From: Candidatus Omnitrophota bacterium
GTDB lineage: Bacteria; Omnitrophota; Gorgyraeia; Duberdicusellales; 4484-171
Reading direction: 5' to 3'
Assembly (NCBI GenBank): GCA_014729775.1
Contig: WJJJ01000006.1
Span: 16,694 to 80,693, forward strand
DNA: 64,000 nucleotides
In this document: in pieces, positions 2,789 through 35,609 of the stretch
Numbering within the stretch: the first letter of the stretch is position 1
How the letters are laid out: every line of letters begins with the position of its first letter
Program-made: the position numbers and the translations under genes
The notes under the pieces: model-generated
Told to the model about the DNA's origin: nothing
What the model saw: only the letters and a program-made list of their open reading frames with translations
Database searches by the model: none

Positions 2789-3337
2789 TCATCCCACCCA
2801 AAAATTATTTTTCTTCGCCGTTTGCCGGTCAATCATCACATGCTTATCCGGCACCATGCGTAAACTTTCGTGAATCGCCTGATCGAAGGTATACAGCTCG
2901 ATATGCTTGGCATGATATTCCTTGATCTGTTTAATCACATCGACAAAATCCGAATCTCCGGTGATCAGCGCGGCCACATCGTAATGGTTCATCACGGCTT
3001 TGGAAAACATATCCACCGCAATCTTTACGTCCAGACCCTTCTGCATCCAGTCTTTATTCATGCGCACCAGGCGGCCGAGCTTTACCTCAAAATAAGGAAT
3101 ATGCACTTTCAGATTGTGCAGGTAATCCCTCTGTTCCTGAAACGTATGCGGGTTCTCCTCCTGACTGAATTCCGCCGAATAGTAATAACAGCGTATGAGG
3201 TGACGTCTTCGTGACACCCATTTGATGATATTTCCCCAGTGAATTTCCTTTCGGCGCACAAACCCGCGTTTGCCCTTAATTTCCTTCATTTTCTGCACGA
3301 CGTATTCCGCGTCGATAAAAATCATGATTCTTTTCAT
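2789..3337 (-). CDS. NYN-domain (LabA/DUF88-like, PIN-fold) protein
   Basis: IMIFIDAEYV ... ITGDSDFVDVIKQIKEYHAKHIELYTF is the NYN/LabA signature. Confidence 0.65.
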   Translation of the reverse strand: MKRIMIFIDAEYVVQKMKEIKGKRGFVRRKEIHWGNIIKWVSRRRHLIRCYYYSAEFSQEENPHTFQEQRDYLHNLKVHIPYFEVKLGRLVRMNKDWMQKGLDVKIAVDMFSKAVMNHYDVAALITGDSDFVDVIKQIKEYHAKHIELYTFDQAIHESLRMVPDKHVMIDRQTAKKNNFWVG

Positions 3338-3362
3338 TGTATTTCCTTTATGTTTTTCGTTT

Positions 3363-3899
3363 CTATTGTACTTTGCGTATATACTTGCGCAGCGCGCGCC
3401 ATGTGTTCTCGCCTATCTTCCCGTCGGCCGTCAGCCCCTTTTCTTTCTGAAAGCGGACCAGCGCTTTCCGGGTGCGCGGCCCTTTTTTCCCGTCAATCGG
3501 ACCGGGATCATAGCCCGCGTTCACCAGCGCCTGCTGCATTTCCCTCATATTGATCTTGGAAGGAGAAAAATCGGCCTCATAGATCCTGACCAGCGAATCC
3601 CATGTCTTGTGGTCGGCGTATCCGGTCACGTTGAGTCCGAAATCCTCCTGAAATTCCCGCAGCGCGTCCCGGGTATGAAATCCCAGTTCTCCGTCGGGCG
3701 TACCCGGATTGTATCCGGCCGATTTGAGTAATTCCTGCAGTTCCTCCACTTTCGGATTATATCCGGCCACATCCCCGAACAACTCGCGTTCCTGCGCCAT
3801 TTCTTTCTGCAAAACCCGGAGCAGGAAATCGCATCCGCTGCACATCGTCCCTCCCAGTAACAGTACCGCAATCGCGGCGCCAATTCTGATCCGCCCCAT
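3363..3899 (-). CDS. secreted/lipoprotein with three peptidoglycan-binding (PG_binding_1) repeats
   Basis: Signal peptide with Cys; three repeats of the ..GY.PG..DG..G..T..AL..FQ...GL...G pattern. Confidence 0.6.
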   Translation of the reverse strand: MGRIRIGAAIAVLLLGGTMCSGCDFLLRVLQKEMAQERELFGDVAGYNPKVEELQELLKSAGYNPGTPDGELGFHTRDALREFQEDFGLNVTGYADHKTWDSLVRIYEADFSPSKINMREMQQALVNAGYDPGPIDGKKGPRTRKALVRFQKEKGLTADGKIGENTWRALRKYIRKVQ

Positions 3900-3901
3900 A
3901 C

Positions 3902-4120
3902 TTAAGATTTACGGTAGGTAATTCTTCCTTTACTGAGATCATAGGGGGAGAGTTCCACCTTTACTTTGTCGCCGGGAAGAATCCGGATGAAGAATTTGCG
4001 CATCTTTCCGCTTGGATACGCAGTGATCTTGTGTCCGTTCTCCAGCTCAACCCGGAACAATGAATTACCCAATACTTCCGATACTTTACCTTCGACCTCT
4101 ATGGCCTCTTCTTTTCCCAT
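3902..4120 (-). CDS. infA: translation initiation factor IF-1
   Basis: The internal ATG gives a 72-aa protein [66 protein letters not shown], the canonical IF-1 S1 fold. The longer 120-aa ORF is an upstream extension. Confidence 0.85.
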
Positions 4121-11894: not shown

Positions 11895-12461
11895 TTATTT
11901 CTTTTCCCAGACATGCTTCCCCTTGGTCTTATCGTACCGCTCAAACCAATCTCCCGACGCGGCTCTTTTGTAGTGATCCCGGAAAAAGATCCGTTCGACC
12001 TGAGAGACCTCGAGGTTGTTTTTTGCCGCGGTGACACGGTAAATCTGCCGTCTGGCTTTATTTTCTTTCTCAATGACCTGTTGAATTTCCTCTTTTTTTT
12101 CGGGAGCAATGTTCATGTCGATCAGTTCGATGTACCCGTTACGGTTCTCGCCGACATAACCGGCTTCAAAAAACCGTTTGACTTTCGGCGCCAGTTCTTT
12201 CCTCACGGCGATCGCGTCCTCGATCTGAACGCCGGAATCCTGCGCGTAGACATTCTGAATACCGAACAGCCAATTGAGCTGAGTGGGGGAATCTCCGTAA
12301 ATCTGATCTTCGATACTGTCGGCTTCCTCAACCACGTGCTGGTAGACGTCGACCCGCATGTTGATATCTACCTTCAACGGGTCTTTTGTCTGCAGCTGAA
12401 CCCGGGGTGTGCATGCCGCCGCGCACAGCAAAGCCGTAATAAAAAAGAATATCGGTCTCAT
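11895..12461 (-). CDS. lipoprotein, fused YnbE-like (N-term) and YdbL-like DUF1318 (C-term) domains
   Basis: Lipobox LLCAAAC. CTPRVQLQTKDPLKVDINMRVDV resembles E. coli YnbE (CTPRIEVAAPKEPITINMNVKI). The C-terminal GYVGENRNGYIELID...ENKARRQIYRVTAAKNNL..SQVERIFF matches the YdbL family. Confidence 0.55.
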   Translation of the reverse strand: MRPIFFFITALLCAAACTPRVQLQTKDPLKVDINMRVDVYQHVVEEADSIEDQIYGDSPTQLNWLFGIQNVYAQDSGVQIEDAIAVRKELAPKVKRFFEAGYVGENRNGYIELIDMNIAPEKKEEIQQVIEKENKARRQIYRVTAAKNNLEVSQVERIFFRDHYKRAASGDWFERYDKTKGKHVWEKK

Positions 12462-13591
12462 TGTTCACCTCCGCGGATATCGTGAAAATACACCGTGAAA
12501 TTCCGTTCTCCCATTTCCTCCGAAAAAAAACGCAGTTCAAGCATGAGCCCGTCCGGGGCCCGGGACAACTCCCAGGAAGCTCCATTATACCGGTAATCTT
12601 GCAAGTTGGCAACGAGAGCCCGGTAGGCGCGCGGGGTCATCCGCTTCTGCAGAAACGGAAAGGGCTTCTCCTGTTTGATCTGCACCTTTCCGCCGTCGCT
12701 GTTCTCCAGCAGTCCGCTCACCCGGGGCAAACCGCCAGCGCCGTTCGCGCACAGCCGCAAATCGCCGCTGAACGCTCCCGTGATCGTCACTTTTTCCTTC
12801 CCGCCGGCCAGCTGCACCAGGGAAGCAGCGGAAATATTGCTCGCCGACAGCCGGACACACGCCGGAACGAATTCGGCGAGGTCTACCCTGCCGGCCAAAG
12901 TCCCGCGGGCTCCCAGCAGCGGATGCGAAAATTCTTTCAGAATATAGGACATGCCCCTTTTTTCGACAGGCACTCGAATCGGAACAATATCCTTTCCTTT
13001 GAGCGAAATACCGGAAAGTTCCAGCACCAACCCATCCTGCGGACATTCCCGCAGGATGATCTGATCGATTTTCAACGGGCCCGTCTCAATCCGTCCATCG
13101 CGGACGGTCAGATTCTTCACCGCGGAAATTCCTTTCCCGCGGATCATCAGATCAACATCACCCTGTACCGTCAGCGGAAACGGCTCCCGCATCTTGATCC
13201 TGCCCCGGTCCACGCGTACCGCGACGGGAGGAGCACGGGAACCTCCGGACGGCATTGGGACGCCTGTTCCCGAAACGAGATCTTTGAAACCGCGCGCCTC
13301 CACCGCGATTTGTTCGATCGTAACCGAGGTAAGCTCCGGCTGAGCGATTCCCTGCCATCGAAAACGCAGAGTAACGCGGGCACAGGTGAGACTGGCGTGC
13401 GGTTTATCGGCGCGGAAATCGTAAAGGGTGAGAGAATTAAATCCGCTCTCCACGCGTCCAACCGCGAGCGAACCGCCGAGATACCGCGGTGCTGTCCGTA
13501 AAAGACAGACTTTGATCAGAAGATTCCTTCCGCATACCAATGACAGCAGTACGAACAGCACTCCGGCCGCGATCTTTGTTCGGAGCCTCAC
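12458..13591 (-). CDS. YdbH-like (AsmA-family) membrane-anchored protein, short form
   Basis: GTG start at 13591 overlaps the rhomboid stop (GTGA). It has an N-terminal TM helix (IAAGVLFVLLSLVCG) and is translationally coupled (4-nt overlap) to the YnbE/YdbL lipoprotein, as in the ydbH-ynbE-ydbL operon. Confidence 0.45.
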   Translation of the reverse strand: MRLRTKIAAGVLFVLLSLVCGRNLLIKVCLLRTAPRYLGGSLAVGRVESGFNSLTLYDFRADKPHASLTCARVTLRFRWQGIAQPELTSVTIEQIAVEARGFKDLVSGTGVPMPSGGSRAPPVAVRVDRGRIKMREPFPLTVQGDVDLMIRGKGISAVKNLTVRDGRIETGPLKIDQIILRECPQDGLVLELSGISLKGKDIVPIRVPVEKRGMSYILKEFSHPLLGARGTLAGRVDLAEFVPACVRLSASNISAASLVQLAGGKEKVTITGAFSGDLRLCANGAGGLPRVSGLLENSDGGKVQIKQEKPFPFLQKRMTPRAYRALVANLQDYRYNGASWELSRAPDGLMLELRFFSEEMGERNFTVYFHDIRGGEQ

Positions 13592-14385
13592 TCGCGGCTT
13601 TCCTTTTCCAGAATTTTTCTTTCTCTCCTGGTAAGAGAATCCATGCCCTCCCGGGAAATCTTTTCCAGTATCCGGTCCATTTCCCTGCGCCTGTCCGCGT
13701 GTCCGTCTTTCCCAGAGCCGAGCCACTGACGAAGCCGGTTTTTCAAAGCGTTCCAGGAAAAAATCCGGGCGGCAAAGAACCGAAACCGTTCCTGTTTGAC
13801 GTACAGGTACCCGATCCCCAGTCCCGCCAAATGAGCACTGTGGGCAATGCCTCCTCTTGGAGAGCCGAGCAGTGCCATTAATGTCAGACCGATGAATAAG
13901 AAAACCGCGTATTTGATCTTCATCGGAAACAGAAACAATACCAAGACCACGGTTTCGGGAAACATCACGGCGTAAGCGGCAAGCAGACCGAATATCGCGC
14001 CCGACGCGCCCACGATCGGGACCCCGGATCCCGGAGCAAGCAAAAAGCTGCACAGTCCCGCCCCGACGCCGGTGAGAAAATAGAATTTCAAGAACTCCCT
14101 TTTTCCCCACGCGGCCTCGATCCCGGGACCGAAAAAATACAATACCATCATGTTCACCAACAGATGGAAGAGTCCTCCATGAAGGAAAAGGTAGGTCACG
14201 AACTGCCAGATCATCAGGCGGGAGAACACCAGTACCGGCACCAGCCCGAACACGCGGAACCACGGAAAGTGGGCGAATATCGTACTTAGTAAAAACACGA
14301 CGACGTTCGCGATCAGCAGATTTTTTACCCCGGGAGTGATTCCGTATCCCGGATCGAATTGCGTATAGGTGCGATAGGGCGACAT
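13588..14385 (-). CDS. rhomboid family intramembrane serine protease
   Basis: GASGAIFG catalytic Ser motif, HLAGL catalytic His, six TM helices. Confidence 0.8.
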   Translation of the reverse strand: MSPYRTYTQFDPGYGITPGVKNLLIANVVVFLLSTIFAHFPWFRVFGLVPVLVFSRLMIWQFVTYLFLHGGLFHLLVNMMVLYFFGPGIEAAWGKREFLKFYFLTGVGAGLCSFLLAPGSGVPIVGASGAIFGLLAAYAVMFPETVVLVLFLFPMKIKYAVFLFIGLTLMALLGSPRGGIAHSAHLAGLGIGYLYVKQERFRFFAARIFSWNALKNRLRQWLGSGKDGHADRRREMDRILEKISREGMDSLTRRERKILEKESRE

Positions 14386-14411: not shown

Positions 14412-14972
14412 TTATGCCTTGTTTTTCGCGAGCATGTTACAGAACAGCTGACCCTGTTCAATGGCATCATCAAGCGCGACATGCGTTTTCCGATTCTGAT
14501 CAAACCATTCCTTAGGCATAGTGCTTTTGGTCACTTTCAAAAAGGGCATTTTCAAAACCGCGGCGGCATAGGACTTCACGTCTAAAGCCACATAGGAAAA
14601 AGGACTTTCTCCCGTGAATTTCATCAGATACCAGAGCACGAATAAGAAATCGAACGACGCCGGGTACGCCACGAATACCGGCTTCCCGGGCAGGGAATGA
14701 ATCCACTGCACATACTCATTCATGGCTTTTTCGGGATCCTGGGGATTCTTCCGGGCTTCCTCCCAGGCCTTCGTCCTGGATTTCCACCACTGCATCGTAT
14801 CCGGATCCTGTCCCGCGCCCGGAAGTTCGGCCAGATTCACGCTGAACGTAGAAACCAGTTCCTTCCCGGCGGTAAACGCGGCCGACCCCAAACTCAGCAT
14901 CGAATACTGGCCGGGAACCGGGCCGTCCGCTTCAATATCCGTACTCACATATATTTCCTTTGCGTCTTTCAC
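14412..14972 (-). CDS. DEDDh-type 3'-5' exonuclease domain protein
   Basis: Exo I DIEADGP, Exo [11 protein letters not shown], Exo III H-x4-D (HVALDDAIE). Confidence 0.55.
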
Positions 14973-15184
14973 GAGGTTCTCCAGATCATCCGGATCTCCA
15001 GTACTTCACCGCAGTCAGGGCAGCGGAACATCTGTCTTTTGGGATCCACCCATTCCACGTATTCATGTCCCTCTACAATCCTGCCGCAAAAATCACATTT
15101 ATAGAGTTCCTCTTCATCTTTGGGAAACAGCGGACCGCAAGAATGATCAGACCCGGGAAATGTGTACTCGTCGCCGTATGCCAT
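14969..15184 (-). CDS. small zinc-ribbon protein
   Basis: 71 aa with two CxxC pairs (CDFCGR .. CPDCG). 4-nt overlap with the exonuclease gene. Confidence 0.45.
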
Positions 15185-15189
15185 AAGTA

Positions 15190-15936
15190 TTACTGGATTT
15201 CTGCGGTGAAAGTTCCCTTGATCAGCGTCTTTCCGTCTTCGGTCGGCACGCAGAGAAACACTTCTCCGGGCAAAGAGACACCGTAGGGGGTACCGAACTT
15301 CAGATACAGCACGTATCCTTCGCTGACTTCCCGCTCCCGCGGAAACTTGTCACCTTCTGACCGCCAATACAGCTGTATGCGCGGATTCATAATCGAGGGA
15401 TTGCCCGGATCGACCCGTATCACCTTATTTTCCAAGGAATCATCATCTTCTTCGGTAAACAATATGAAATAGACCGCGTTGCGGGGAAGCAGGGGATTTC
15501 CTTCCACCAATTTCAGTAAATTCCCCTGGATGCTGGCTTGCTCCAGTTTGCATTCCTGCCCGTGTATTCGGCCGGCTACCTTTGCGTGAGGAATCGAAAT
15601 CGAATCAACTTTCGCCGGACAGCCCAGAAGAGCCATTCTCTCCGCCGCATCTTCCTGCGCTGCCGCCGCCGGAACCTCCTCATCAACGACGCCGGTTCCT
15701 CCAGCGTGCGGTTTCGGCTCCGGTTTCAACACCGTCCCGTCTTCCAGTACTATTTTTTCAATGTCGTCCAGCCAATAGGTAAGATCCATCCCCAGCCAGC
15801 GTATCTTGATATACTGATCAGTCTGTTCAAGCAAAGTACCGTCGAGCGTACGTCCCGATTTCAGATGCACCTTAGTCTCCGCCCAAGCACTTATCCCTAC
15901 GCAAAAAATGAGCACCGTGAGAATAAACCTTTTCAT
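15190..15936 (-). CDS. secreted hypothetical protein carrying a shared N-terminal ~40-aa module
   Basis: Signal peptide, then KVHLKSGRTLDGTLLEQTDQYIKIRWLGMDLTYWLDDIEKI, the module shared with three other proteins in the window. Confidence 0.5.
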   Translation of the reverse strand: MKRFILTVLIFCVGISAWAETKVHLKSGRTLDGTLLEQTDQYIKIRWLGMDLTYWLDDIEKIVLEDGTVLKPEPKPHAGGTGVVDEEVPAAAAQEDAAERMALLGCPAKVDSISIPHAKVAGRIHGQECKLEQASIQGNLLKLVEGNPLLPRNAVYFILFTEEDDDSLENKVIRVDPGNPSIMNPRIQLYWRSEGDKFPREREVSEGYVLYLKFGTPYGVSLPGEVFLCVPTEDGKTLIKGTFTAEIQ

Positions 15937-15938
15937 CT

Positions 15939-16853
15939 TTACTCCACCCGTACCTTGAGCCGTTTTCCGCCCCAGTTCGTAATTCCGAAATTATCCGTAA
16001 AAAAAACGACCACCCTGTCCCAGTCTTCCTTGAATATCTTCATCGGGATGTTGTCATGCCCGATACCCGGCTCCACCTTTTTCACGTAAGGTTTATTCAT
16101 TTCATTAAACCACTTCTCCAGCTTCAGCAGAGTTTCGTAGGCGCTATCCTGATCACCGCACACCATTAATGTCCGCGGCAGACGACGCGCGTCCTCTTTA
16201 CGGAACCCCGGCGGCAGGAATCCGGCCACCATCGCGAACAGTTTCACCCGGGGATCCGCGGAGGCAACCTCAAGCCCGATCGTCCCGCCCAGAGAATACC
16301 CAACGATGCCTATTTTTTCTTTATCGGCGTTCGGGATCATTTGAGCGTAATCAACGACGCGAACGAACGTGTTTCCCCAATTGCTCCGCGCGCTTTGGAA
16401 ATAATGCACGTTGATCGCGATCACCCCTTCGTTCATCAAATCGGTCGCGAATCTTTTATACCGCTGGGCCCGGTCTCCTTGAATTCCGGCCGAACCGTGG
16501 ATCAGGATCACCACCGGACAAAGTGAGGTGCCGGGATTGTATACGTCGATCCGGACTTCATCATCTCCTACTTCTATCGTTTCCCGACTGAGCCCTTTCA
16601 CTGCTTTTGCCGCAGGGAATTCGGAAGAACCTATTTCTTCGATGTCATCCTTCCAGTAGGTAAGGATCGTCCCGTACCTTTTAACTTTGATGTATTCGTC
16701 GGTCTGTTCGATAATCGGCGCGCGGATCACCTCTCCGCGTTTCAAACGGATCACTTCCGCGAAACCCGGACCGATCCCCCCCCAAATCCCTGCCGAGAAT
16801 ACCGCCGCCGACACCCAGCACAATAAATGTTTTTTCATCGTTCTCCTCATCAC
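15939..16853 (-). CDS. secreted alpha/beta hydrolase (esterase/dienelactone-hydrolase-like) with the shared N-terminal module
   Basis: GYSLGG nucleophile elbow, a later His, and N-terminal module EVIRLKRGEVIRAPIIEQTDEYIKVKRYGTILTYWKDDIEEI. Confidence 0.65.
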   Translation of the reverse strand: MMRRTMKKHLLCWVSAAVFSAGIWGGIGPGFAEVIRLKRGEVIRAPIIEQTDEYIKVKRYGTILTYWKDDIEEIGSSEFPAAKAVKGLSRETIEVGDDEVRIDVYNPGTSLCPVVILIHGSAGIQGDRAQRYKRFATDLMNEGVIAINVHYFQSARSNWGNTFVRVVDYAQMIPNADKEKIGIVGYSLGGTIGLEVASADPRVKLFAMVAGFLPPGFRKEDARRLPRTLMVCGDQDSAYETLLKLEKWFNEMNKPYVKKVEPGIGHDNIPMKIFKEDWDRVVVFFTDNFGITNWGGKRLKVRVE

Positions 16854-17933
16854 TTATATTTTAATCCGGTTTCCGTTTTCGTCAAAGAAAAACATCCTTT
16901 TTTCGTCGATCTCCACGCCGACTTGAGCACAGTCTCCCGGAATATCCCCACGGCGGGCGACGGTCACTTCCCGTTCCGAGCCGACGTCCACGCGCGCGTA
17001 TGTTTCCTCTCCCAGAGATTCGGTATAGACCACCCTCCCGTTCATCTGCCCTCCTTCCTTAATCGTACGGGCGGCAGCCGGCCGGAATCCAAAATATACC
17101 CGCCCGTCCTGATACGGTTCCAACCCGGAGCCGAATCGTTCCGGAAGCTCTATCCTTATCCCCTCTTCGGCCAGCACCGGCCCGCCGTCGAAACCGACCT
17201 CCATACTGAGCACGTTCATCGGCGGAGTACCGATGAAACCGGCGACAAACAGCGTGCCCGGATCATGATACAACTCGCGGGGGGGCGAAATCTGCTCAAC
17301 TCTGCCTTCGCGTAACACCACTACCGCCTCTCCCAGCGACATGGCCTCCACCTGATCGTGAGTCACGTACATGATCGTTTTGCCGAGCCGCTGGTGAAGT
17401 TTGATAAACTCCCCTCTCAGTTCAATCCGCAATTTAGCGTCAAGGTTTGACAGCGGCTCGTCGAACAGAAACAGATCCGGATCACGCACGATCGCCCGGC
17501 CGGTAGCAACCCGCTGCTGCTGCCCCCCTGAAAGTTCCCGCGGATAACTATTTAATTTATGTTCGATATCCAGAATGCGGCTTACCTCCCGTACCCGCGA
17601 TGAAATCTCTTCGCGGGCAGCTTTTCTGACCCGCAGTCCGAACGCGATATTTTCGTATACGGACAGGTGCGGATAAAGCGCATAGTTTTGAAATACCATG
17701 GCGATATTGCGCCGGTAGGGCGGGCGGTGCGTCACATCCCGGCAACCGAGGAGTACCCGCCCGGCGGAAACTTCTTCAAGCCCGGCGATGCAGTTCAGCA
17801 GCGTCGATTTCCCGCATCCCGACGGACCGAGGATCACGTAGAACTTTCCCTCGGGAACGAAAAGATCAAGCTGATCAAGAGCGGTCAGCTCCCCGAACTT
17901 TTTACTCACTTTTTCCAGCTTCACTTCGGCCAT
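16854..17933 (-). CDS. sugar ABC transporter ATP-binding protein (MalK/UgpC-like)
   Basis: Walker [10 protein letters not shown], signature LSGGQQQRV, Walker [13 protein letters not shown], and a C-terminal transport-associated OB domain. Confidence 0.85.
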
Positions 17934-17937
17934 GCAT

Positions 17938-18756
17938 TTATCCTTTCATCGCTCCGGAAAGATACCCGGGACGGATATACCTCTGCAGGGCAAACGTAAA
18001 AATAAGGACCGGTATCGTGATAATCACCGCATAGGTTGCCGAAGAAAAAATATTCCCCCGGGAGATATAATAATACATTTTCAGCGGCATCGTCGGTTTC
18101 GACAGTGTCAGGTAAGAGGCGTAAATGAACTCATCCCACGAAAACATGAACGAAAAAATCCCGGCCACGCTGATACCCCTTAAAGACAGCGGCAAAACTA
18201 TTTTAAAAAACGCGTAGAGACGGCCGGCCCCGTCGATCAGCGCCTGTTTCTCAAGTTCTTTCGGAAAACTGGAAAACACTCCCACCAGAATAAAACAACT
18301 GATCGGCAGAACCCGGACCAGATGCGCCAGCATTAAGCCGAAAACGGTATCGAACAGTCCCCCTTTGATGAACGTAATCGAAACCGGCAGAGCGATGCTG
18401 ATTTCCGGGATCATCCGGGTGAGAAAGATGACCAGAATCAGTCCGTACCGGGCCCGGTAGCGAAACCGGGAAATCGCGTAGGCCGCGGGCACGGTGAGCA
18501 AAAGGCTTAACACGCTCGTCCCCAGCGCGGTCACAACGCTTTTGCTCAACGGCGCGAAGAACACGCTGCCGGAAGCGAGCACGTCGCGGAAATGGCTGAG
18601 AGTAAAATGCCGTACCAAATAGGGCGGATTCTGCGTAAACACGTCCCGGGGCGCGCTGACCGATATTTTCAACATGATATACATCGGAAAAACCAGCAGG
18701 CAGACGAGGATGAGTACCGTCATCCAGAAAAAAGTCCGTTTGACTGGTCTATTCAT
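17938..18756 (-). CDS. carbohydrate ABC transporter permease (MalG/UgpE-like)
   Basis: Six TM helices with the EAA loop. Start chosen at MNRPVKRT, giving a 4-nt overlap with the upstream permease. Confidence 0.8.
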   Translation of the reverse strand: MNRPVKRTFFWMTVLILVCLLVFPMYIMLKISVSAPRDVFTQNPPYLVRHFTLSHFRDVLASGSVFFAPLSKSVVTALGTSVLSLLLTVPAAYAISRFRYRARYGLILVIFLTRMIPEISIALPVSITFIKGGLFDTVFGLMLAHLVRVLPISCFILVGVFSSFPKELEKQALIDGAGRLYAFFKIVLPLSLRGISVAGIFSFMFSWDEFIYASYLTLSKPTMPLKMYYYISRGNIFSSATYAVIITIPVLIFTFALQRYIRPGYLSGAMKG

Positions 18757-19640
18757 GCGCCCGCGATTCCTTTCCTGCCTGCCGTTTTCAGATAGATCAA
18801 TACCGCGCACAGGATCATCCCCAGCAGAATAACCGAACTTGCCGCGGAAGTGTAGGGATTATTGTATTCCTGGTACTCCAGATAGGCGAAGGTGCCGATC
18901 ACTTTCAGGTTCTGTCCCATCAGGATCAGCGGCACCGCGAAAATACGGAACGCATCGACCCCTCGGATAATCACCGCGGCGGTAATCGACGGTACCAGCA
19001 GCGGCAGGGTAATCCGCCGGAACGTATAGAACACGCCCGCTCCGTCGATCCGGGCCGCCTTGTAGAGCACCGGATCGATCGACTGCAGACCGGATAAAAG
19101 GATCAGCATCACGATCGGTGTGACCTTCCAGCTGTCGGCGAGACTGACCATGACAATCGACCGCCACCCTCCGGACATCCAGTACACCGGCTCATTCAAT
19201 ACGCCCAGGTCCATGAGAATGCGGTTAATCCATCCCTGACCGGAAAACAGATAACTCATCATCACGCCGACGACTGCCGTGGGAATCGCTAAGGGAAGAA
19301 TAAAGACCGGCCGCAGGAACCGGATAACCCGAGAGCTTTTTGAAAGGATCAGCGCAAACAAGAACCCCAGACCGATCTCGATCGAAAGACTCAAAAAAGC
19401 GATAGAAACCGTATGAAACATCGCCAGACGGAACCCCTCCTGGGCAAACAATTCGCGGTAGTGGCTCATTGTAAGGCCGTTTCCTTCCACCGGCTCAAGA
19501 CTGAGCAATACCGTACGTGCAATCGGAACGACGGTCAGCACGCAGAGAAAAATCAGCAGCGGAAGGATACAGATAAGTTCGAAATGTTTCTTTCGCGCGC
19601 GACGCGCCAGCAACGGAAAAAAGGATAACAAACGGTTCAT
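18753..19640 (-). CDS. carbohydrate ABC transporter permease (MalF/UgpA-like)
   Basis: TM helices with EAA-like motif (KAARIDGAGVFYTFRRITLPLL). Confidence 0.8.
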   Translation of the reverse strand: MNRLLSFFPLLARRARKKHFELICILPLLIFLCVLTVVPIARTVLLSLEPVEGNGLTMSHYRELFAQEGFRLAMFHTVSIAFLSLSIEIGLGFLFALILSKSSRVIRFLRPVFILPLAIPTAVVGVMMSYLFSGQGWINRILMDLGVLNEPVYWMSGGWRSIVMVSLADSWKVTPIVMLILLSGLQSIDPVLYKAARIDGAGVFYTFRRITLPLLVPSITAAVIIRGVDAFRIFAVPLILMGQNLKVIGTFAYLEYQEYNNPYTSAASSVILLGMILCAVLIYLKTAGRKGIAGA

Positions 19641-20857
19641 CGCTCCCGGTAAAGCTCCTTTGCTCCTTCCAGCTTCTTCTTATATTTCTTCAAGGTTTCT
19701 TCGACCGGCGCCTGCTCAATGACAATTTCCCGAAACGCTTCGGTCACGTATTTTACGTAAGCCGGCCACCAGGTCACATTTTCGCGGAATTCGCCGTGTT
19801 TCATGGCTTTCTGCACGGAAGCGTAATACTGCTTCTGCCACTCTTCCACCTGACCGTAGGCATCCGTCCGCATGGACGGCCATCCAAGTTCGCCTACCAG
19901 CAACTCCTGGACTTCTTTCGACTGGAGAAACCAGATGAATTTTCGTGCCAGCTCTTTTCTGGCGCTGATCGAGGGAATTCCCAGCACGTCGCCGCCGATC
20001 ACGTGCCGCTCTCCGTGGGGCCCTTTCCAGCCGCTGTAGGTCCCGATGAAATCAAGTCCGTACTCTTTTACCAGAATGGTCACGCCAAACGGCCAGTTCT
20101 GCGCCAGATAGACCTGCTGATTTGCGATCATCCTGTTGGTGGTATCCCACTTGGCCCGCTGGGATCCCTGCGCGGCATACGGCCACAGCTTCTGTAGAAA
20201 AGCGAACGCCCGGATACAGCCCTCGTCATCAAAGGCGTACGGTTCACCGCCGGCCTGCAGGATGAATTCATACACCTGGGTAGCGGTCGGATTGCCGCCG
20301 AAACCTTTGAGCAGGATCCTTCCCCGCTCTTCCTTTTCTTTGAGCATTTTCGCGGTTTCCCGCAACTGCTCCCAGGTGCGGGGAACTTCAAGACCATATT
20401 CATCAAACTTTTCCTTATGGTAATAGACAATCTGTACGTTCGGACGAAAAGGCATGAACAGCAGTCTCCCGTCGAACTTCAGTGACTGTACAAGCGAGGG
20501 AATCGTATTGGCCGGGATCTCGTCCTCATATTGGCTGAGGTCCTCGACCAGCCCCTTATTCACCAGCACGGCCAGATTCATGTTATCCTGCGCGACCACG
20601 TCGATTTCCGCTTTACCCGCTTTCTGGAGCGCGTCGAGTTTGGTAGCGAGGCTGCCCGATTCGATCTGGATTCCTTCCACCTTCACGCCGTACCGGCTTT
20701 CGAAGAGAGGAAAGACTTTCGAACGCATGACCTGCCACTCGGATTCTCCGAGACTCATTGTGACCGTCAGACGATCTTTCGAACCGGAACCGGGCCCGCA
20801 GGAAATCAAAGCGAAGAGGAAGACGGCGGAGGCGCAGAAGAGAAATGGTTTTTTCAT
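19637..20857 (-). CDS. ABC transporter substrate-binding lipoprotein (solute-binding family 1)
   Basis: Lipobox LISCG, typical SBP_bac_1 size and composition, first gene of the transporter operon. Confidence 0.8.
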   Translation of the reverse strand: MKKPFLFCASAVFLFALISCGPGSGSKDRLTVTMSLGESEWQVMRSKVFPLFESRYGVKVEGIQIESGSLATKLDALQKAGKAEIDVVAQDNMNLAVLVNKGLVEDLSQYEDEIPANTIPSLVQSLKFDGRLLFMPFRPNVQIVYYHKEKFDEYGLEVPRTWEQLRETAKMLKEKEERGRILLKGFGGNPTATQVYEFILQAGGEPYAFDDEGCIRAFAFLQKLWPYAAQGSQRAKWDTTNRMIANQQVYLAQNWPFGVTILVKEYGLDFIGTYSGWKGPHGERHVIGGDVLGIPSISARKELARKFIWFLQSKEVQELLVGELGWPSMRTDAYGQVEEWQKQYYASVQKAMKHGEFRENVTWWPAYVKYVTEAFREIVIEQAPVEETLKKYKKKLEGAKELYRER

Positions 20858-20964
20858 ACCGTCATTATAACAAAAATAGCACAAGCCGTAAGTTTTTTCG
20901 AATAAGCGCGAGAAAGGAACGCCCTCTTACAGCCGGTACCCCGCGAAGGAGGGAAGAGATACGC

Positions 20965-28136: not shown

Positions 28137-28784
28137 TTACTCTTTCATTTTCGTGCGTTCACCTATTCTCTTTTTTATGGCTGTGAGAAAATAATCTATA
28201 AGCCCGATGATCTGTCTATTTTCTTTGAATCGCTCACTTTTCTGAAAAAGCTCTTTTGCCTTTAAGAATTCATTTTCGGCTCTTGAGTAATCTTTCAGGT
28301 AAAAATAACACTGCGCCCGCGCGTCATACAGACGCGGATCATCGGGAGCTATTTCAAGCGCTTTGTTAAAATACCTGAGCGCCTCTCTTTCGTCACGCAT
28401 GCTGAAATATGTCCACCCCAGCCCCTCATAGGCTTGCGCGCGCTCGGGGGCTAATTCCATGGCTATTTGAAACTTCGCAAGAGCGGACGGGTAGTTCCCC
28501 TTGTGAAGGAATTCGTTCCCCTGCGCGATATACAACTCGAATTTTCCCTGGCTGTCGCGGCCACCGGTATCTCGAACATCCCCGGTGATTTTTACGTTAT
28601 CAATACTCTCGATATCTTCCAGGTAATATGTGATGGGCACCCCGCTGATATCCACCTTTATTCTCTCTTCTGTTTTCTCGATAACCGGCGCTTCTATCGT
28701 CTTCCCGGACTTCAGCAGAATATTTTCCGCGGCCAGCGAAAAAGCACACCAAACGCAGAAGAGAAATACCGTGATCTTTCTCAT
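28137..28784 (-). CDS. secreted TPR-repeat protein with the shared N-terminal module
   Basis: Signal peptide, module ENILLKSGKTIEAPVIEKTEERIKVDISGVPITYYLEDIESI, then 3-4 TPR repeats (AQAYEGLGWTYF.., ALRYFNKALEIAPDD.., YDARAQCYFYLKDYSRA). Confidence 0.65.
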   Translation of the reverse strand: MRKITVFLFCVWCAFSLAAENILLKSGKTIEAPVIEKTEERIKVDISGVPITYYLEDIESIDNVKITGDVRDTGGRDSQGKFELYIAQGNEFLHKGNYPSALAKFQIAMELAPERAQAYEGLGWTYFSMRDEREALRYFNKALEIAPDDPRLYDARAQCYFYLKDYSRAENEFLKAKELFQKSERFKENRQIIGLIDYFLTAIKKRIGERTKMKE

Positions 28785-34706: not shown

Positions 34707-35609
34707 TTAGAATGCTCTGTCCGATATCCGTTCACCCGGCCAGGTGCTCACGCCAAAATTATCTGCGAACCACATCACGATGCTGCGCCAGTTATCCCAG
34801 AACATCGTCATGGGAATAGTGTGGCCGTAACCCTTATCTACTTCGTAGGTAAACGACTTTCCGTATTCTTCATACCAGGATTTCAGCCTGCGCAGGGTTT
34901 TTATGGAGTTGTCCTTGCTGCCGCTGCGGAAATACATCTTGGGCAGACGCGACGCGTGAAACTTGGTAAAACCCGGGGGGAAGTATCCGGCACTAATCGC
35001 GAGCAGTTTGATCCGCGGATCGCGAGAGGCCACCTGCAGGGCGACGGTCCCGCCGAGCGAGTATCCCACCATCCCGATTTTGTCTTCGTCCGCATTGGGA
35101 ATCGACTGGGCAAAATCGATCGCTTTGACGAATGTCCGCACCCACATCGGTTGGGAACTTTCAAAATAATGGACGTTGACCGCGATAATCCCCTGGTTCA
35201 TTAAGTCGTAACCGAAGCGGCGATAACGCGAGGCACGCTTGCCCGTGATTCCGGCCGACCCGTGGATCACCAGCACCACGGGAGAACCAGGACGGCCGGG
35301 GTTGTAGACATCTACCTTTACCCGCTTGTTGCCCAGAGTGAGATATTCGGTGGATTCTCCCATGGAAACCGCTTCGCCCTGATCGATCGCTTCCCCGTGC
35401 TCTCCGCTCCCGGCGCCTTCAATCGATTCAATATCCGATTTCCAGTAGGTCAGCGGCACCCCGGATATTTCAATCTTCACGTACTCCCCGGTCTGCTCGA
35501 CAATCTTCCCCCGCACTTCGTTCCCGTTCTTGAGCACGAGGGTTTCAGCACAGAGCGCGAACGGAAGAAAAAAAAGAAAAGATAAGCTGAGCGTGAATAC
35601 CTTCTTCAT
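34707..35609 (-). CDS. secreted alpha/beta hydrolase, paralog of 15939..16853, with the shared N-terminal module
   Basis: GYSLGG nucleophile elbow, collinear with 15939..16853 over its whole length; module ETLVLKNGNEVRGKIVEQTGEYVKIEISGVPLTYWKSDIESI. Confidence 0.65.
   Translation of the reverse strand: MKKVFTLSLSFLFFLPFALCAETLVLKNGNEVRGKIVEQTGEYVKIEISGVPLTYWKSDIESIEGAGSGEHGEAIDQGEAVSMGESTEYLTLGNKRVKVDVYNPGRPGSPVVLVIHGSAGITGKRASRYRRFGYDLMNQGIIAVNVHYFESSQPMWVRTFVKAIDFAQSIPNADEDKIGMVGYSLGGTVALQVASRDPRIKLLAISAGYFPPGFTKFHASRLPKMYFRSGSKDNSIKTLRRLKSWYEEYGKSFTYEVDKGYGHTIPMTMFWDNWRSIVMWFADNFGVSTWPGERISDRAF

Follow-up and report, generated by a model that had tools for sequence, protein, structure and literature searches.

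A probable mobile domain related to NF047433, predicted to fold as a small beta-barrel, at the mature N-terminus of exported Omnitrophota proteins

We analyzed a 64,000-nucleotide stretch of DNA from a Candidatus Omnitrophota bacterium (contig WJJJ01000006.1, positions 16,694 to 80,693; hereafter the window), in which four exported proteins, termed A to D, carry a common module of 43-44 residues at the start of their mature chains. The evidence presented here makes it very probable that this module is a real, mobile and exported small-barrel domain related to the NCBIfam family NF047433. An earlier note, drawn from the letters of the DNA, had reported four exported proteins with a common module right after the signal peptide, and both statements were borne out. 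The four open reading frames (ORFs) in question were checked by translation and found to be present as described, all on the minus strand: protein A (15190-15936, 248 aa), protein B (15939-16853, 304 aa), protein C (28137-28784, 215 aa) and protein D (34707-35609, 300 aa). The span under which the note had filed the module, 15190-16853, takes in only two of these four carriers.

In protein A, a signal peptide with K/R at its N-terminus, a core of hydrophobic residues and a cleavage site of the A-x-A type (MKRFILTVLIFCVGISAWA, 15880-15936) precedes the module copy (ETKVHLKSGRTLDGTLLEQTDQYIKIRWLGMDLTYWLDDIEKIV, 15748-15879). The corresponding signal peptides and module copies were located by translation at 16758-16853 and 16629-16757 (EVIRLKRGEVIRAPIIEQTDEYIKVKRYGTILTYWKDDIEEIG) in protein B, at 28728-28784 and 28599-28727 (ENILLKSGKTIEAPVIEKTEERIKVDISGVPITYYLEDIESID) in protein C, and at 35547-35609 and 35418-35546 (ETLVLKNGNEVRGKIVEQTGEYVKIEISGVPLTYWKSDIESIE) in protein D; the start of protein B is either the GTG at 16853 or the ATG 3 nt downstream. 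All four copies were also recognized by phmmer and hidden Markov model (HMM) matches to the other copies. In all four proteins the module starts at the first predicted mature residue, directly behind a predicted signal peptidase I site, the cleavage contexts being AWA↓ET, GFA↓EV, LAA↓EN and LCA↓ET (the arrow marks the cut).

Pairwise comparison of the four window copies revealed identities of 40-50%. When each module alone was used as a phmmer query against 910 ORFs of the window, it found the other three at E-values of 1e-8 to 1e-11 and no other ORF below an E-value of 0.1, and leave-one-out HMMs regained the omitted copy at E-values of 7e-15 to 7e-18. A fifth copy is absent from the window, as the family-wide HMM found exactly four among 1,226 ORFs, with the next match at E=9.3. 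DNA identity between the modules was no more than 46-58%, and where the residues agreed, 40-73% of their codons differed, which argues that the similarity is old and has been kept by selection on the protein rather than by a recent DNA duplication. Downstream of the module, only B and D were related (E 2e-88); they appear as whole-gene paralogues with 51% identity over 279 aa. The earlier view that the downstream domains are unrelated thus stood as far as an esterase found twice, TPR repeats and a domain of no recognized family are concerned, but because B and D are similar over their whole length, the window holds three independent architectures with the module and not four.

The module had been called novel and left without a named family, and this part of the earlier note has to be revised. 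All four window proteins matched NF047433 (Lepto_7_Nterm, LA_0442/LA_0875 N-terminal domain-containing protein) at E-values of 5e-7 to 7e-10, with scores of 29.5, 29.0, 33.6 and 38.5 bits that lie below the 43-bit cut-off. With the signal peptide removed, the module matched positions 15-58 of the 63-position profile at E-values of 3e-8 to 3e-5 (23.7 bits and an E-value of 2.9e-5 for protein A, 31.1 bits for protein B). The Omnitrophota consensus reached 42.9 bits, and 68 of 70 non-TPR representatives matched at E<=1e-5 (best 2.5e-16), some of them passing the cut-off. Additionally, the module matched two other Leptospira families, LB_137 and PTPDL, at their N-termini, and weaker matches were found at the C-terminal ends of Leptospira LIC_13076-family proteins and of one anti-sigma family (E 0.023). 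As in the present family, the domain described by NF047433 is placed directly after the signal peptide and occurs in several paralogues per genome with differing C-terminal parts. In contrast, NF047433 is a Leptospira model, whereas the family described here has Omnitrophota hosts, is far larger and has far more varied passengers. Based on these profile matches, we consider the module to be the Omnitrophota branch of an already modelled, functionally blank domain; the related Leptospira model was already known, and what is new here is a very large and architecturally promiscuous Omnitrophota branch. Since NF047433 carries no functional information, it still holds that the module is not part of a described domain with known function, and literature searches on the Leptospira family names and on Omnitrophota secreted or TPR proteins returned no description of the module or of NF047433.

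A profile of the four modules, which took in cleavage-site residues, was searched against 1.84 billion representative proteins. The similarity persisted in this search, which returned 2,015 protein clusters at E<=1e-3 and 663 at E<=1e-10. The architecture was described for the best 150 of the 2,015 clusters, in which the module started at median residue 23 and the carriers were 78-800 aa long. The downstream regions of these proteins fell into 51 groups without a BLAST link. The biggest passenger group was TPR (51 of 150 by Pfam), and further passengers were MORN, ankyrin, LolA-like, DUF3108-like, DLH, peptidase S9, TraB/GumN, DUF4440, DUF2059, DUF6263 and a PHB-depolymerase-type esterase; the majority of passengers gave no Pfam match. 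No carbohydrate-binding module (CBM) or glycoside-hydrolase family appeared among the 25 commonest Pfam families listed per set. To judge from the family names, the recognisable passengers would be periplasm-type scaffolds, chaperone-like folds and hydrolases. Over the 30 positions that follow the module, hydrophobic residues were scarcer (0.257 vs 0.344, p=5e-17), which fits a flexible linker.

One of these passengers deserves separate description. A metagenomic representative of 178 aa, P0093, was found to be a GspG-type major pseudopilin (TIGR01710, 97.6 bits vs a cut-off of 88.85), with the match limited to positions 32-134 of the 134-position profile; in this protein, the signal peptide and the module stand in place of the prepilin leader and the hydrophobic alpha1-N helix. 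A single module copy was present in 143 of 151 proteins, and the remaining eight carried a second, more divergent copy behind the N-terminal one. These double-copy carriers were P0002, P0004, P0007-P0010, P0012 and P0029, and two further cases were seen in loci L027 (2932-3756) and L041 (2941-3786). The two copies formed a tandem with 14-35 residues between them, except in P0029, where each end of the protein had one. Among the eight representatives, the second copy scored 15-45 bits vs 43-71 for the N-terminal copy, and it was also lower in L027 and L041. A link to the surface-exposed Leptospira adhesin LIC20035 was considered and rejected, as three carriers matched it via MORN repeats (profile positions 110-260) and not via the module.

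The boundary between the signal peptide and the module was conserved along with the module. The -3/-1 rule was obeyed in 131 of 141 family members; position -1 was Ala in 115 of the 141, position -2 was Phe in 95 and Tyr in 16, and position +1 was Glu in 129, while a lipobox was found in only 2 of 151 carriers. This junction, which has the family-wide motif F-A↓E-T and in the window lies at 15877-15885, 16755-16763, 28725-28733 and 35544-35552 on the minus strand, is kept far beyond what signal peptidase I needs. Within the same genomic loci, 43 of 56 carriers had an [FY]A[ED] junction, compared with 6 of 60 ORFs that look exported but lack the module. The junction motif therefore belongs to the module and is no general habit of the organism. 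Of the six non-carriers with this motif, at least two were module-free TPR proteins (L001 3784-4992 and L004 2346-2786) that showed VYA↓ET.

The structure of the isolated module was predicted with AlphaFold2 from an alignment of 60 module sequences that was headed by the copy of protein D, which served as the target. The model reached a confidence (predicted local distance difference test, pLDDT) of 94.8 and revealed five strands (residues 2-6, 11-19, 23-28, 31-36 and 40-44), a 3-10 turn before the last strand and no helix; strand 1 starts at modelled residue 2, which corresponds to mature residue 1. The module is thus modelled as an autonomously folding, five-stranded small beta-barrel of the Sm/SH3 type, a confident outcome for the fold prediction that had been proposed as a check. 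The suggestion that the module behaves as an independent mobile unit was likewise confirmed, given the confident fold of the module alone, the 51 unlinked downstream groups and the hydrophobic-poor linker. The module is acidic (mean net charge -3.2), and conservation of aromatic and acidic residues is seen at Y23, Y36, position 37 (aromatic), positions 39-40 (D/E) and E42.

A Foldseek comparison with the Protein Data Bank (PDB) revealed that the top 32 matches were all Hfq, with TMq values of 0.84-0.90, a root mean square deviation of 0.7-1.4 Å over 42-46 residues and sequence identities of 18-26%; the E-values were about 2e-3 to 1e-2, and none was at or below 1e-3. The module and Hfq/Sm-like proteins are alike in their five-stranded, strongly bent barrel and in a similar pattern of glycines and alternating hydrophobic residues. 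In contrast, Hfq has an N-terminal alpha-helix and is cytoplasmic and basic, whereas the module is helix-free, exported and acidic. Profile comparison by hhalign gave a probability of 2.6% and thus no homology to Hfq. No Pfam model matched the module, and there was no match at E<=10 to LSM or Hfq. Given the missing helix, the export, the acidity, the hhalign result and the lack of a Pfam match, we conclude that the module is not an Hfq, and RNA binding is unlikely. Pfam SH3, LysM and SLH gave no match either, the only weak ones being the RimP C-terminal SH3 (E 0.053) and TagH_C (E 0.071), and profile matches to PDB entries were marginal (Edc3 LSm domain, E 0.16; a Like-Sm protein, E 1.1; a designed SH3 barrel).

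Two sets of envelope proteins with comparable barrels were also considered. The DUF903 (YgdI/YgdR) envelope lipoproteins are small barrels, which are classed as Sm-like and form the mature N-terminus of an exported protein; they offer a precedent for Sm-like barrels in the bacterial envelope. However, DUF903 proteins are lipidated at the lipobox Cys and consist of the barrel only, whereas the module follows a signal peptidase I site and has passengers. Four DUF903 structures were located (PDB 2jn0, 3fif, 5cai and 2ra2); an hhalign comparison of the module with three DUF903 PDB sequences gave a probability of 0.3%, and the DUF903 Pfam model did not match. The second is Kustd1711, a dihaem cytochrome and exported anammox protein of Kuenenia, in which a "nose" domain with no assigned function forms an acidic barrel of five strands that resembles Hfq (PMC11791136). 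The nose (PDB 7zs0) matched the module with a TMq of 0.75 and also comes from a host of the Planctomycetes-Verrucomicrobia-Chlamydiae group. In a comparison made by structure only, the difference is that the nose is inserted within a cytochrome domain, whereas the module is N-terminal and sits on a linker.

Carrier loci were collected with a 49-aa consensus from one genome per species; because exact 8-mers were needed, the number of loci per genome is a minimum and remote taxa are under-represented. The search returned 61 loci, nearly all in metagenome-assembled genomes (MAGs) labelled Candidatus Omnitrophota, including Ca. Aceula, and about 14 carrier MAGs bear the label "uncultured Planctomycetales" or "Planctomycetia". 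Three distant matches came from Leptospira or Leptospiraceae (L059-L061). These are 342-aa LB_137-family-like proteins at 2941-3969 of their loci, which scored 150-159 bits against that family, below its 200-bit cut-off, and 28-37 bits against NF047433; to judge from their sequences, their neighbours resemble a MoxR-like AAA ATPase (GEPGTGKT motif) and membrane sensor-like proteins. Besides Omnitrophota, Planctomycetes, Leptospira and the unclassified label "bacterium", the sole other label was Candidatus Elulimicrobium of the Patescibacteria group, with one carrier (L055, DYOU01000058.1, 3001-3132), which may stem from mis-binning or lateral transfer. Several genomes had three to five loci, with at least five in MAG DBS2-5.bin57, and a second carrier was found nearby in 4 of the 61 loci. 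In the flanks of these loci, about 6% of the signal-peptide-like ORFs carried the module (4 of about 64). We therefore regard the module as marking a subset of exported proteins, and the idea that it is a mark of all soluble exported proteins was rejected on this count.

In the window itself, B and D both carry an alpha/beta hydrolase of the DLH type behind the module. The linker and hydrolase of protein B occupy 15939-16628, and the G/S/E-rich linker and paralogous hydrolase of protein D occupy 34707-35417. Pfam DLH scored 32.0 bits in B and 35.8 bits in D vs a cut-off of 21, and both show GYSLG, the GxSxG motif of the nucleophile elbow, which B has at aa 185 and D at aa 182. In protein C, a linker followed by TPR repeats fills 28137-28598 (TPR_2, 62 bits vs 27; TPR_1, 52.8 bits vs 27.8). 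Protein A continues with a P/E/A-rich linker and a C-terminal domain of about aa 113-248 that is predicted to be all-beta (15190-15747) and has no Pfam match. The sole detectable relative of its C-terminal ~135 residues was P0159, a hypothetical protein from Verrucomicrobiae, with 33% identity over 143 aa. The orphan domain (15190-15600, minus strand) and P0159 share the C-terminal motif G-T-F-T-A-E-I. An AlphaFold2 model of full-length protein A from a two-sequence alignment had a pLDDT of 32.6 and is uninformative on the C-terminal fold and on domain packing. The GenBank entries of A (MBD3245583), C (MBD3245597) and D (MBD3245605) call them hypothetical or TPR proteins.

Directly upstream of B and A lies a CUT1-type sugar ABC importer (16854-20884, minus strand). 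It comprises a solute-binding lipoprotein (19637-20884; Pfam SBP_bac_1/8; lipobox ALISC), two permeases (18753-19640 and 17938-18810; Pfam BPD_transp_1) and a MalK-type ATPase (16854-17933; Pfam ABC_tran and OB_MalK), all on the minus strand. The ATPase gene's stop codon is directly followed by the start of B, and A begins 2 nt past B, so that the junctions from importer to carriers measure 0-2 nt; no terminator-like site was found between the ATPase gene and A. The earlier claim that the two adjacent carriers are co-transcribed with a sugar ABC transporter was thus confirmed with respect to the importer and the tight spacing, and the co-transcription, which we infer from that spacing, is likely.

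As regards function, the role of a targeting, anchoring or ligand-binding tag that the note had proposed remains plausible, and we tentatively favour one form of it, in which the module may act as a tether or anchor to a shared partner in the cell envelope. Signal peptidase I would cut at the conserved F-A↓E-T, and the barrel would become the extreme N-terminus of the mature protein, followed by the flexible, hydrophobic-poor linker and a passenger of almost any kind. The barrel would serve as a common handle that holds otherwise soluble periplasmic proteins, via the linker, to one envelope partner, which might be a protein, peptidoglycan or another polymer, and it would add nothing to the passenger's own activity. 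In the B-A operon, an esterase and a beta-domain protein would in this way be kept in the envelope beside the sugar ABC importer. Lipoproteins and SLH-, LysM- and SH3b-anchored proteins have a signal peptide, a small anchoring element, a flexible linker and any passenger. The module shares this layout, which we use as a working analogy only. We favour a tether because of this layout, the periplasm-type passengers and the replacement of the helix in P0093. The weak matches further suggest that Leptospira LIC_13076-family and anti-sigma proteins have the same barrel at their periplasmic C-terminus, which would fit a binding role rather than a strictly N-terminal signal.

Several points weigh against a tether. 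A partner is neither known nor predicted, and no conserved neighbour gene recurred beside the carriers in the 61 loci. The organism makes ordinary lipoproteins too, such as the solute-binding protein with its lipobox ALISC, and the module is therefore not a replacement forced by missing lipid anchoring. The charged conserved residues K7, E18, K25 and E42 could stabilise the tiny barrel instead of forming a binding surface. The near-exclusive N-terminal position, together with the conserved -2 Phe and +1 Glu, would suit a sorting signal equally well, and the closeness of the modelled fold to Hfq would suit a ring-forming assembly module equally well. In addition, the best 150 matches are biased to N-terminal copies by the cleavage-site residues in the profile. 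A separate candidate, the module as a substitute for absent lipoprotein machinery, was rejected, as lipobox proteins occur in carrier genomes.

The fold likeness to Hfq leads to a rather unlikely alternative, in which the barrels pair edge to edge (beta4 with beta5) as in Hfq/Sm, forming rings or dimers, and TPR arrays, hydrolases and pseudopilin heads would be displayed as multimers in the periplasm. The solved Hfq structures among the top 32 PDB matches are all listed as hexamers, the sequence pattern of the module resembles the Sm1/Sm2 motifs and gave the weak Edc3 LSm and Like-Sm matches, and natural tandem copies occur; the helix replaced in P0093 is a polymerisation interface as well as an anchor. 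However, the N-terminal alpha-helix of every Hfq/Sm subunit is absent from the module model, hhalign found no homology to Hfq, and SH3-type barrels, which have the same topology, are usually monomeric. At the other end of the scale, we give next to no credence to chance similarity, low complexity or a conserved signal-peptide tail without a domain. The short length and the fact that the NF047433 model takes in signal-peptide positions 1-14 are all that speaks for it, whereas the matches to the other copies and to NF047433 persist once the signal peptide is removed, the predicted fold of the module is confident and autonomous, and 663 clusters were found at E<=1e-10; on these three grounds this reading was ruled out. 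A role in sensing or in capturing substrate, with the module binding a glycan or small ligand (for example a saccharide via T-Y-[YWF] and D-[DE]-I-E), is quite improbable in our view. The conserved aromatic and acidic residues (Y23, Y36, 37, 39-40 and E42), the two carriers adjoining the sugar importer and the weak match to the C-terminal end of the Leptospira anti-sigma factor family would fit such binding, but most carriers have no link to carbohydrate genes, and it is difficult to see what one ligand TPR, ankyrin, LolA-like and hydrolase passengers would have in common.

The barrel could also be a sorting or export signal that is read by a dedicated machine and followed by outer-membrane insertion, translocation or assignment to a sub-compartment, as an N-terminal counterpart of the T9SS C-terminal domain (CTD), the TPS domain or PEP-CTERM. 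The near-invariant position directly after the signal peptide, the very high conservation across unrelated passengers, the F-A↓E-T motif beyond the needs of signal peptidase with its marked excess in carriers over non-carrier exported proteins, and the presence of several carriers per genome (four in the window) are consistent with such a signal. We nevertheless judge it decidedly unlikely: no candidate machine gene was linked to carriers in the 61 loci, the passengers are of periplasmic type without CBM or glycoside-hydrolase families in the Pfam lists, and the placement of B and A in an ABC importer operon points to a periplasmic site of action. The weak matches to C-terminal copies in Leptospira proteins and the low share of carriers (about 6%) among exported proteins in the flanks of the loci also argue against it. 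In a broader version, Omnitrophota and Leptospira would share an envelope sorting or anchoring system not described so far, an N-terminal counterpart of T9SS-CTD, PEP-CTERM/exosortase or SLH, in which a dedicated partner recognises the barrel and reads the F-A↓E-T junction; we regard this as rather unlikely. If true, that partner would set the destination of a defined subset of exported proteins in these possibly host-dependent nanobacteria.

To our knowledge, no Omnitrophota have been cultivated, and the cell envelope of the group has hardly been characterised. The module heads at least about 2,000 protein clusters and is more conserved than the passengers, and it offers a handle on the organisation of exported proteins in this group. 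Hypothetical proteins of the window can now be annotated as having an NF047433-like, exported barrel of Sm/SH3 type. There is no Pfam model, most Omnitrophota members fall below the NCBIfam cut-off, and the family merits a Pfam-type definition. Leptospira is culturable and genetically tractable, and the Leptospira paralogues provide a route to functional testing. If the module is only a tether or a multimeriser, it would be a useful but ordinary new domain family; as the mark of a sorting pathway, it would be a significant finding.

Further minor observations concern the genes that follow protein A. A 71-aa ORF with a CxxC...CxxC pattern (zinc-ribbon-like; 14969-15184, minus strand) begins 5 nt past the stop codon of A, and an Rv2179c-like 3'-5' exoribonuclease gene (14412-14972) overlaps it by 4 nt. 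As these two adjoin A, the string of ABC importer, B and A genes may run on into unrelated cytoplasmic genes. Beyond them, a 601-aa ORF with a GTG start (12458-14263, minus strand) overlaps a rhomboid protease gene (13588-14385, minus strand) and a 346-aa ORF (12461-13501, plus strand), and at least one of the overlapping long ORFs at 12458-14385 is probably not a gene. The rhomboid protease gene is well supported, with a Pfam Rhomboid match of 112 bits and a DUF6576 match.

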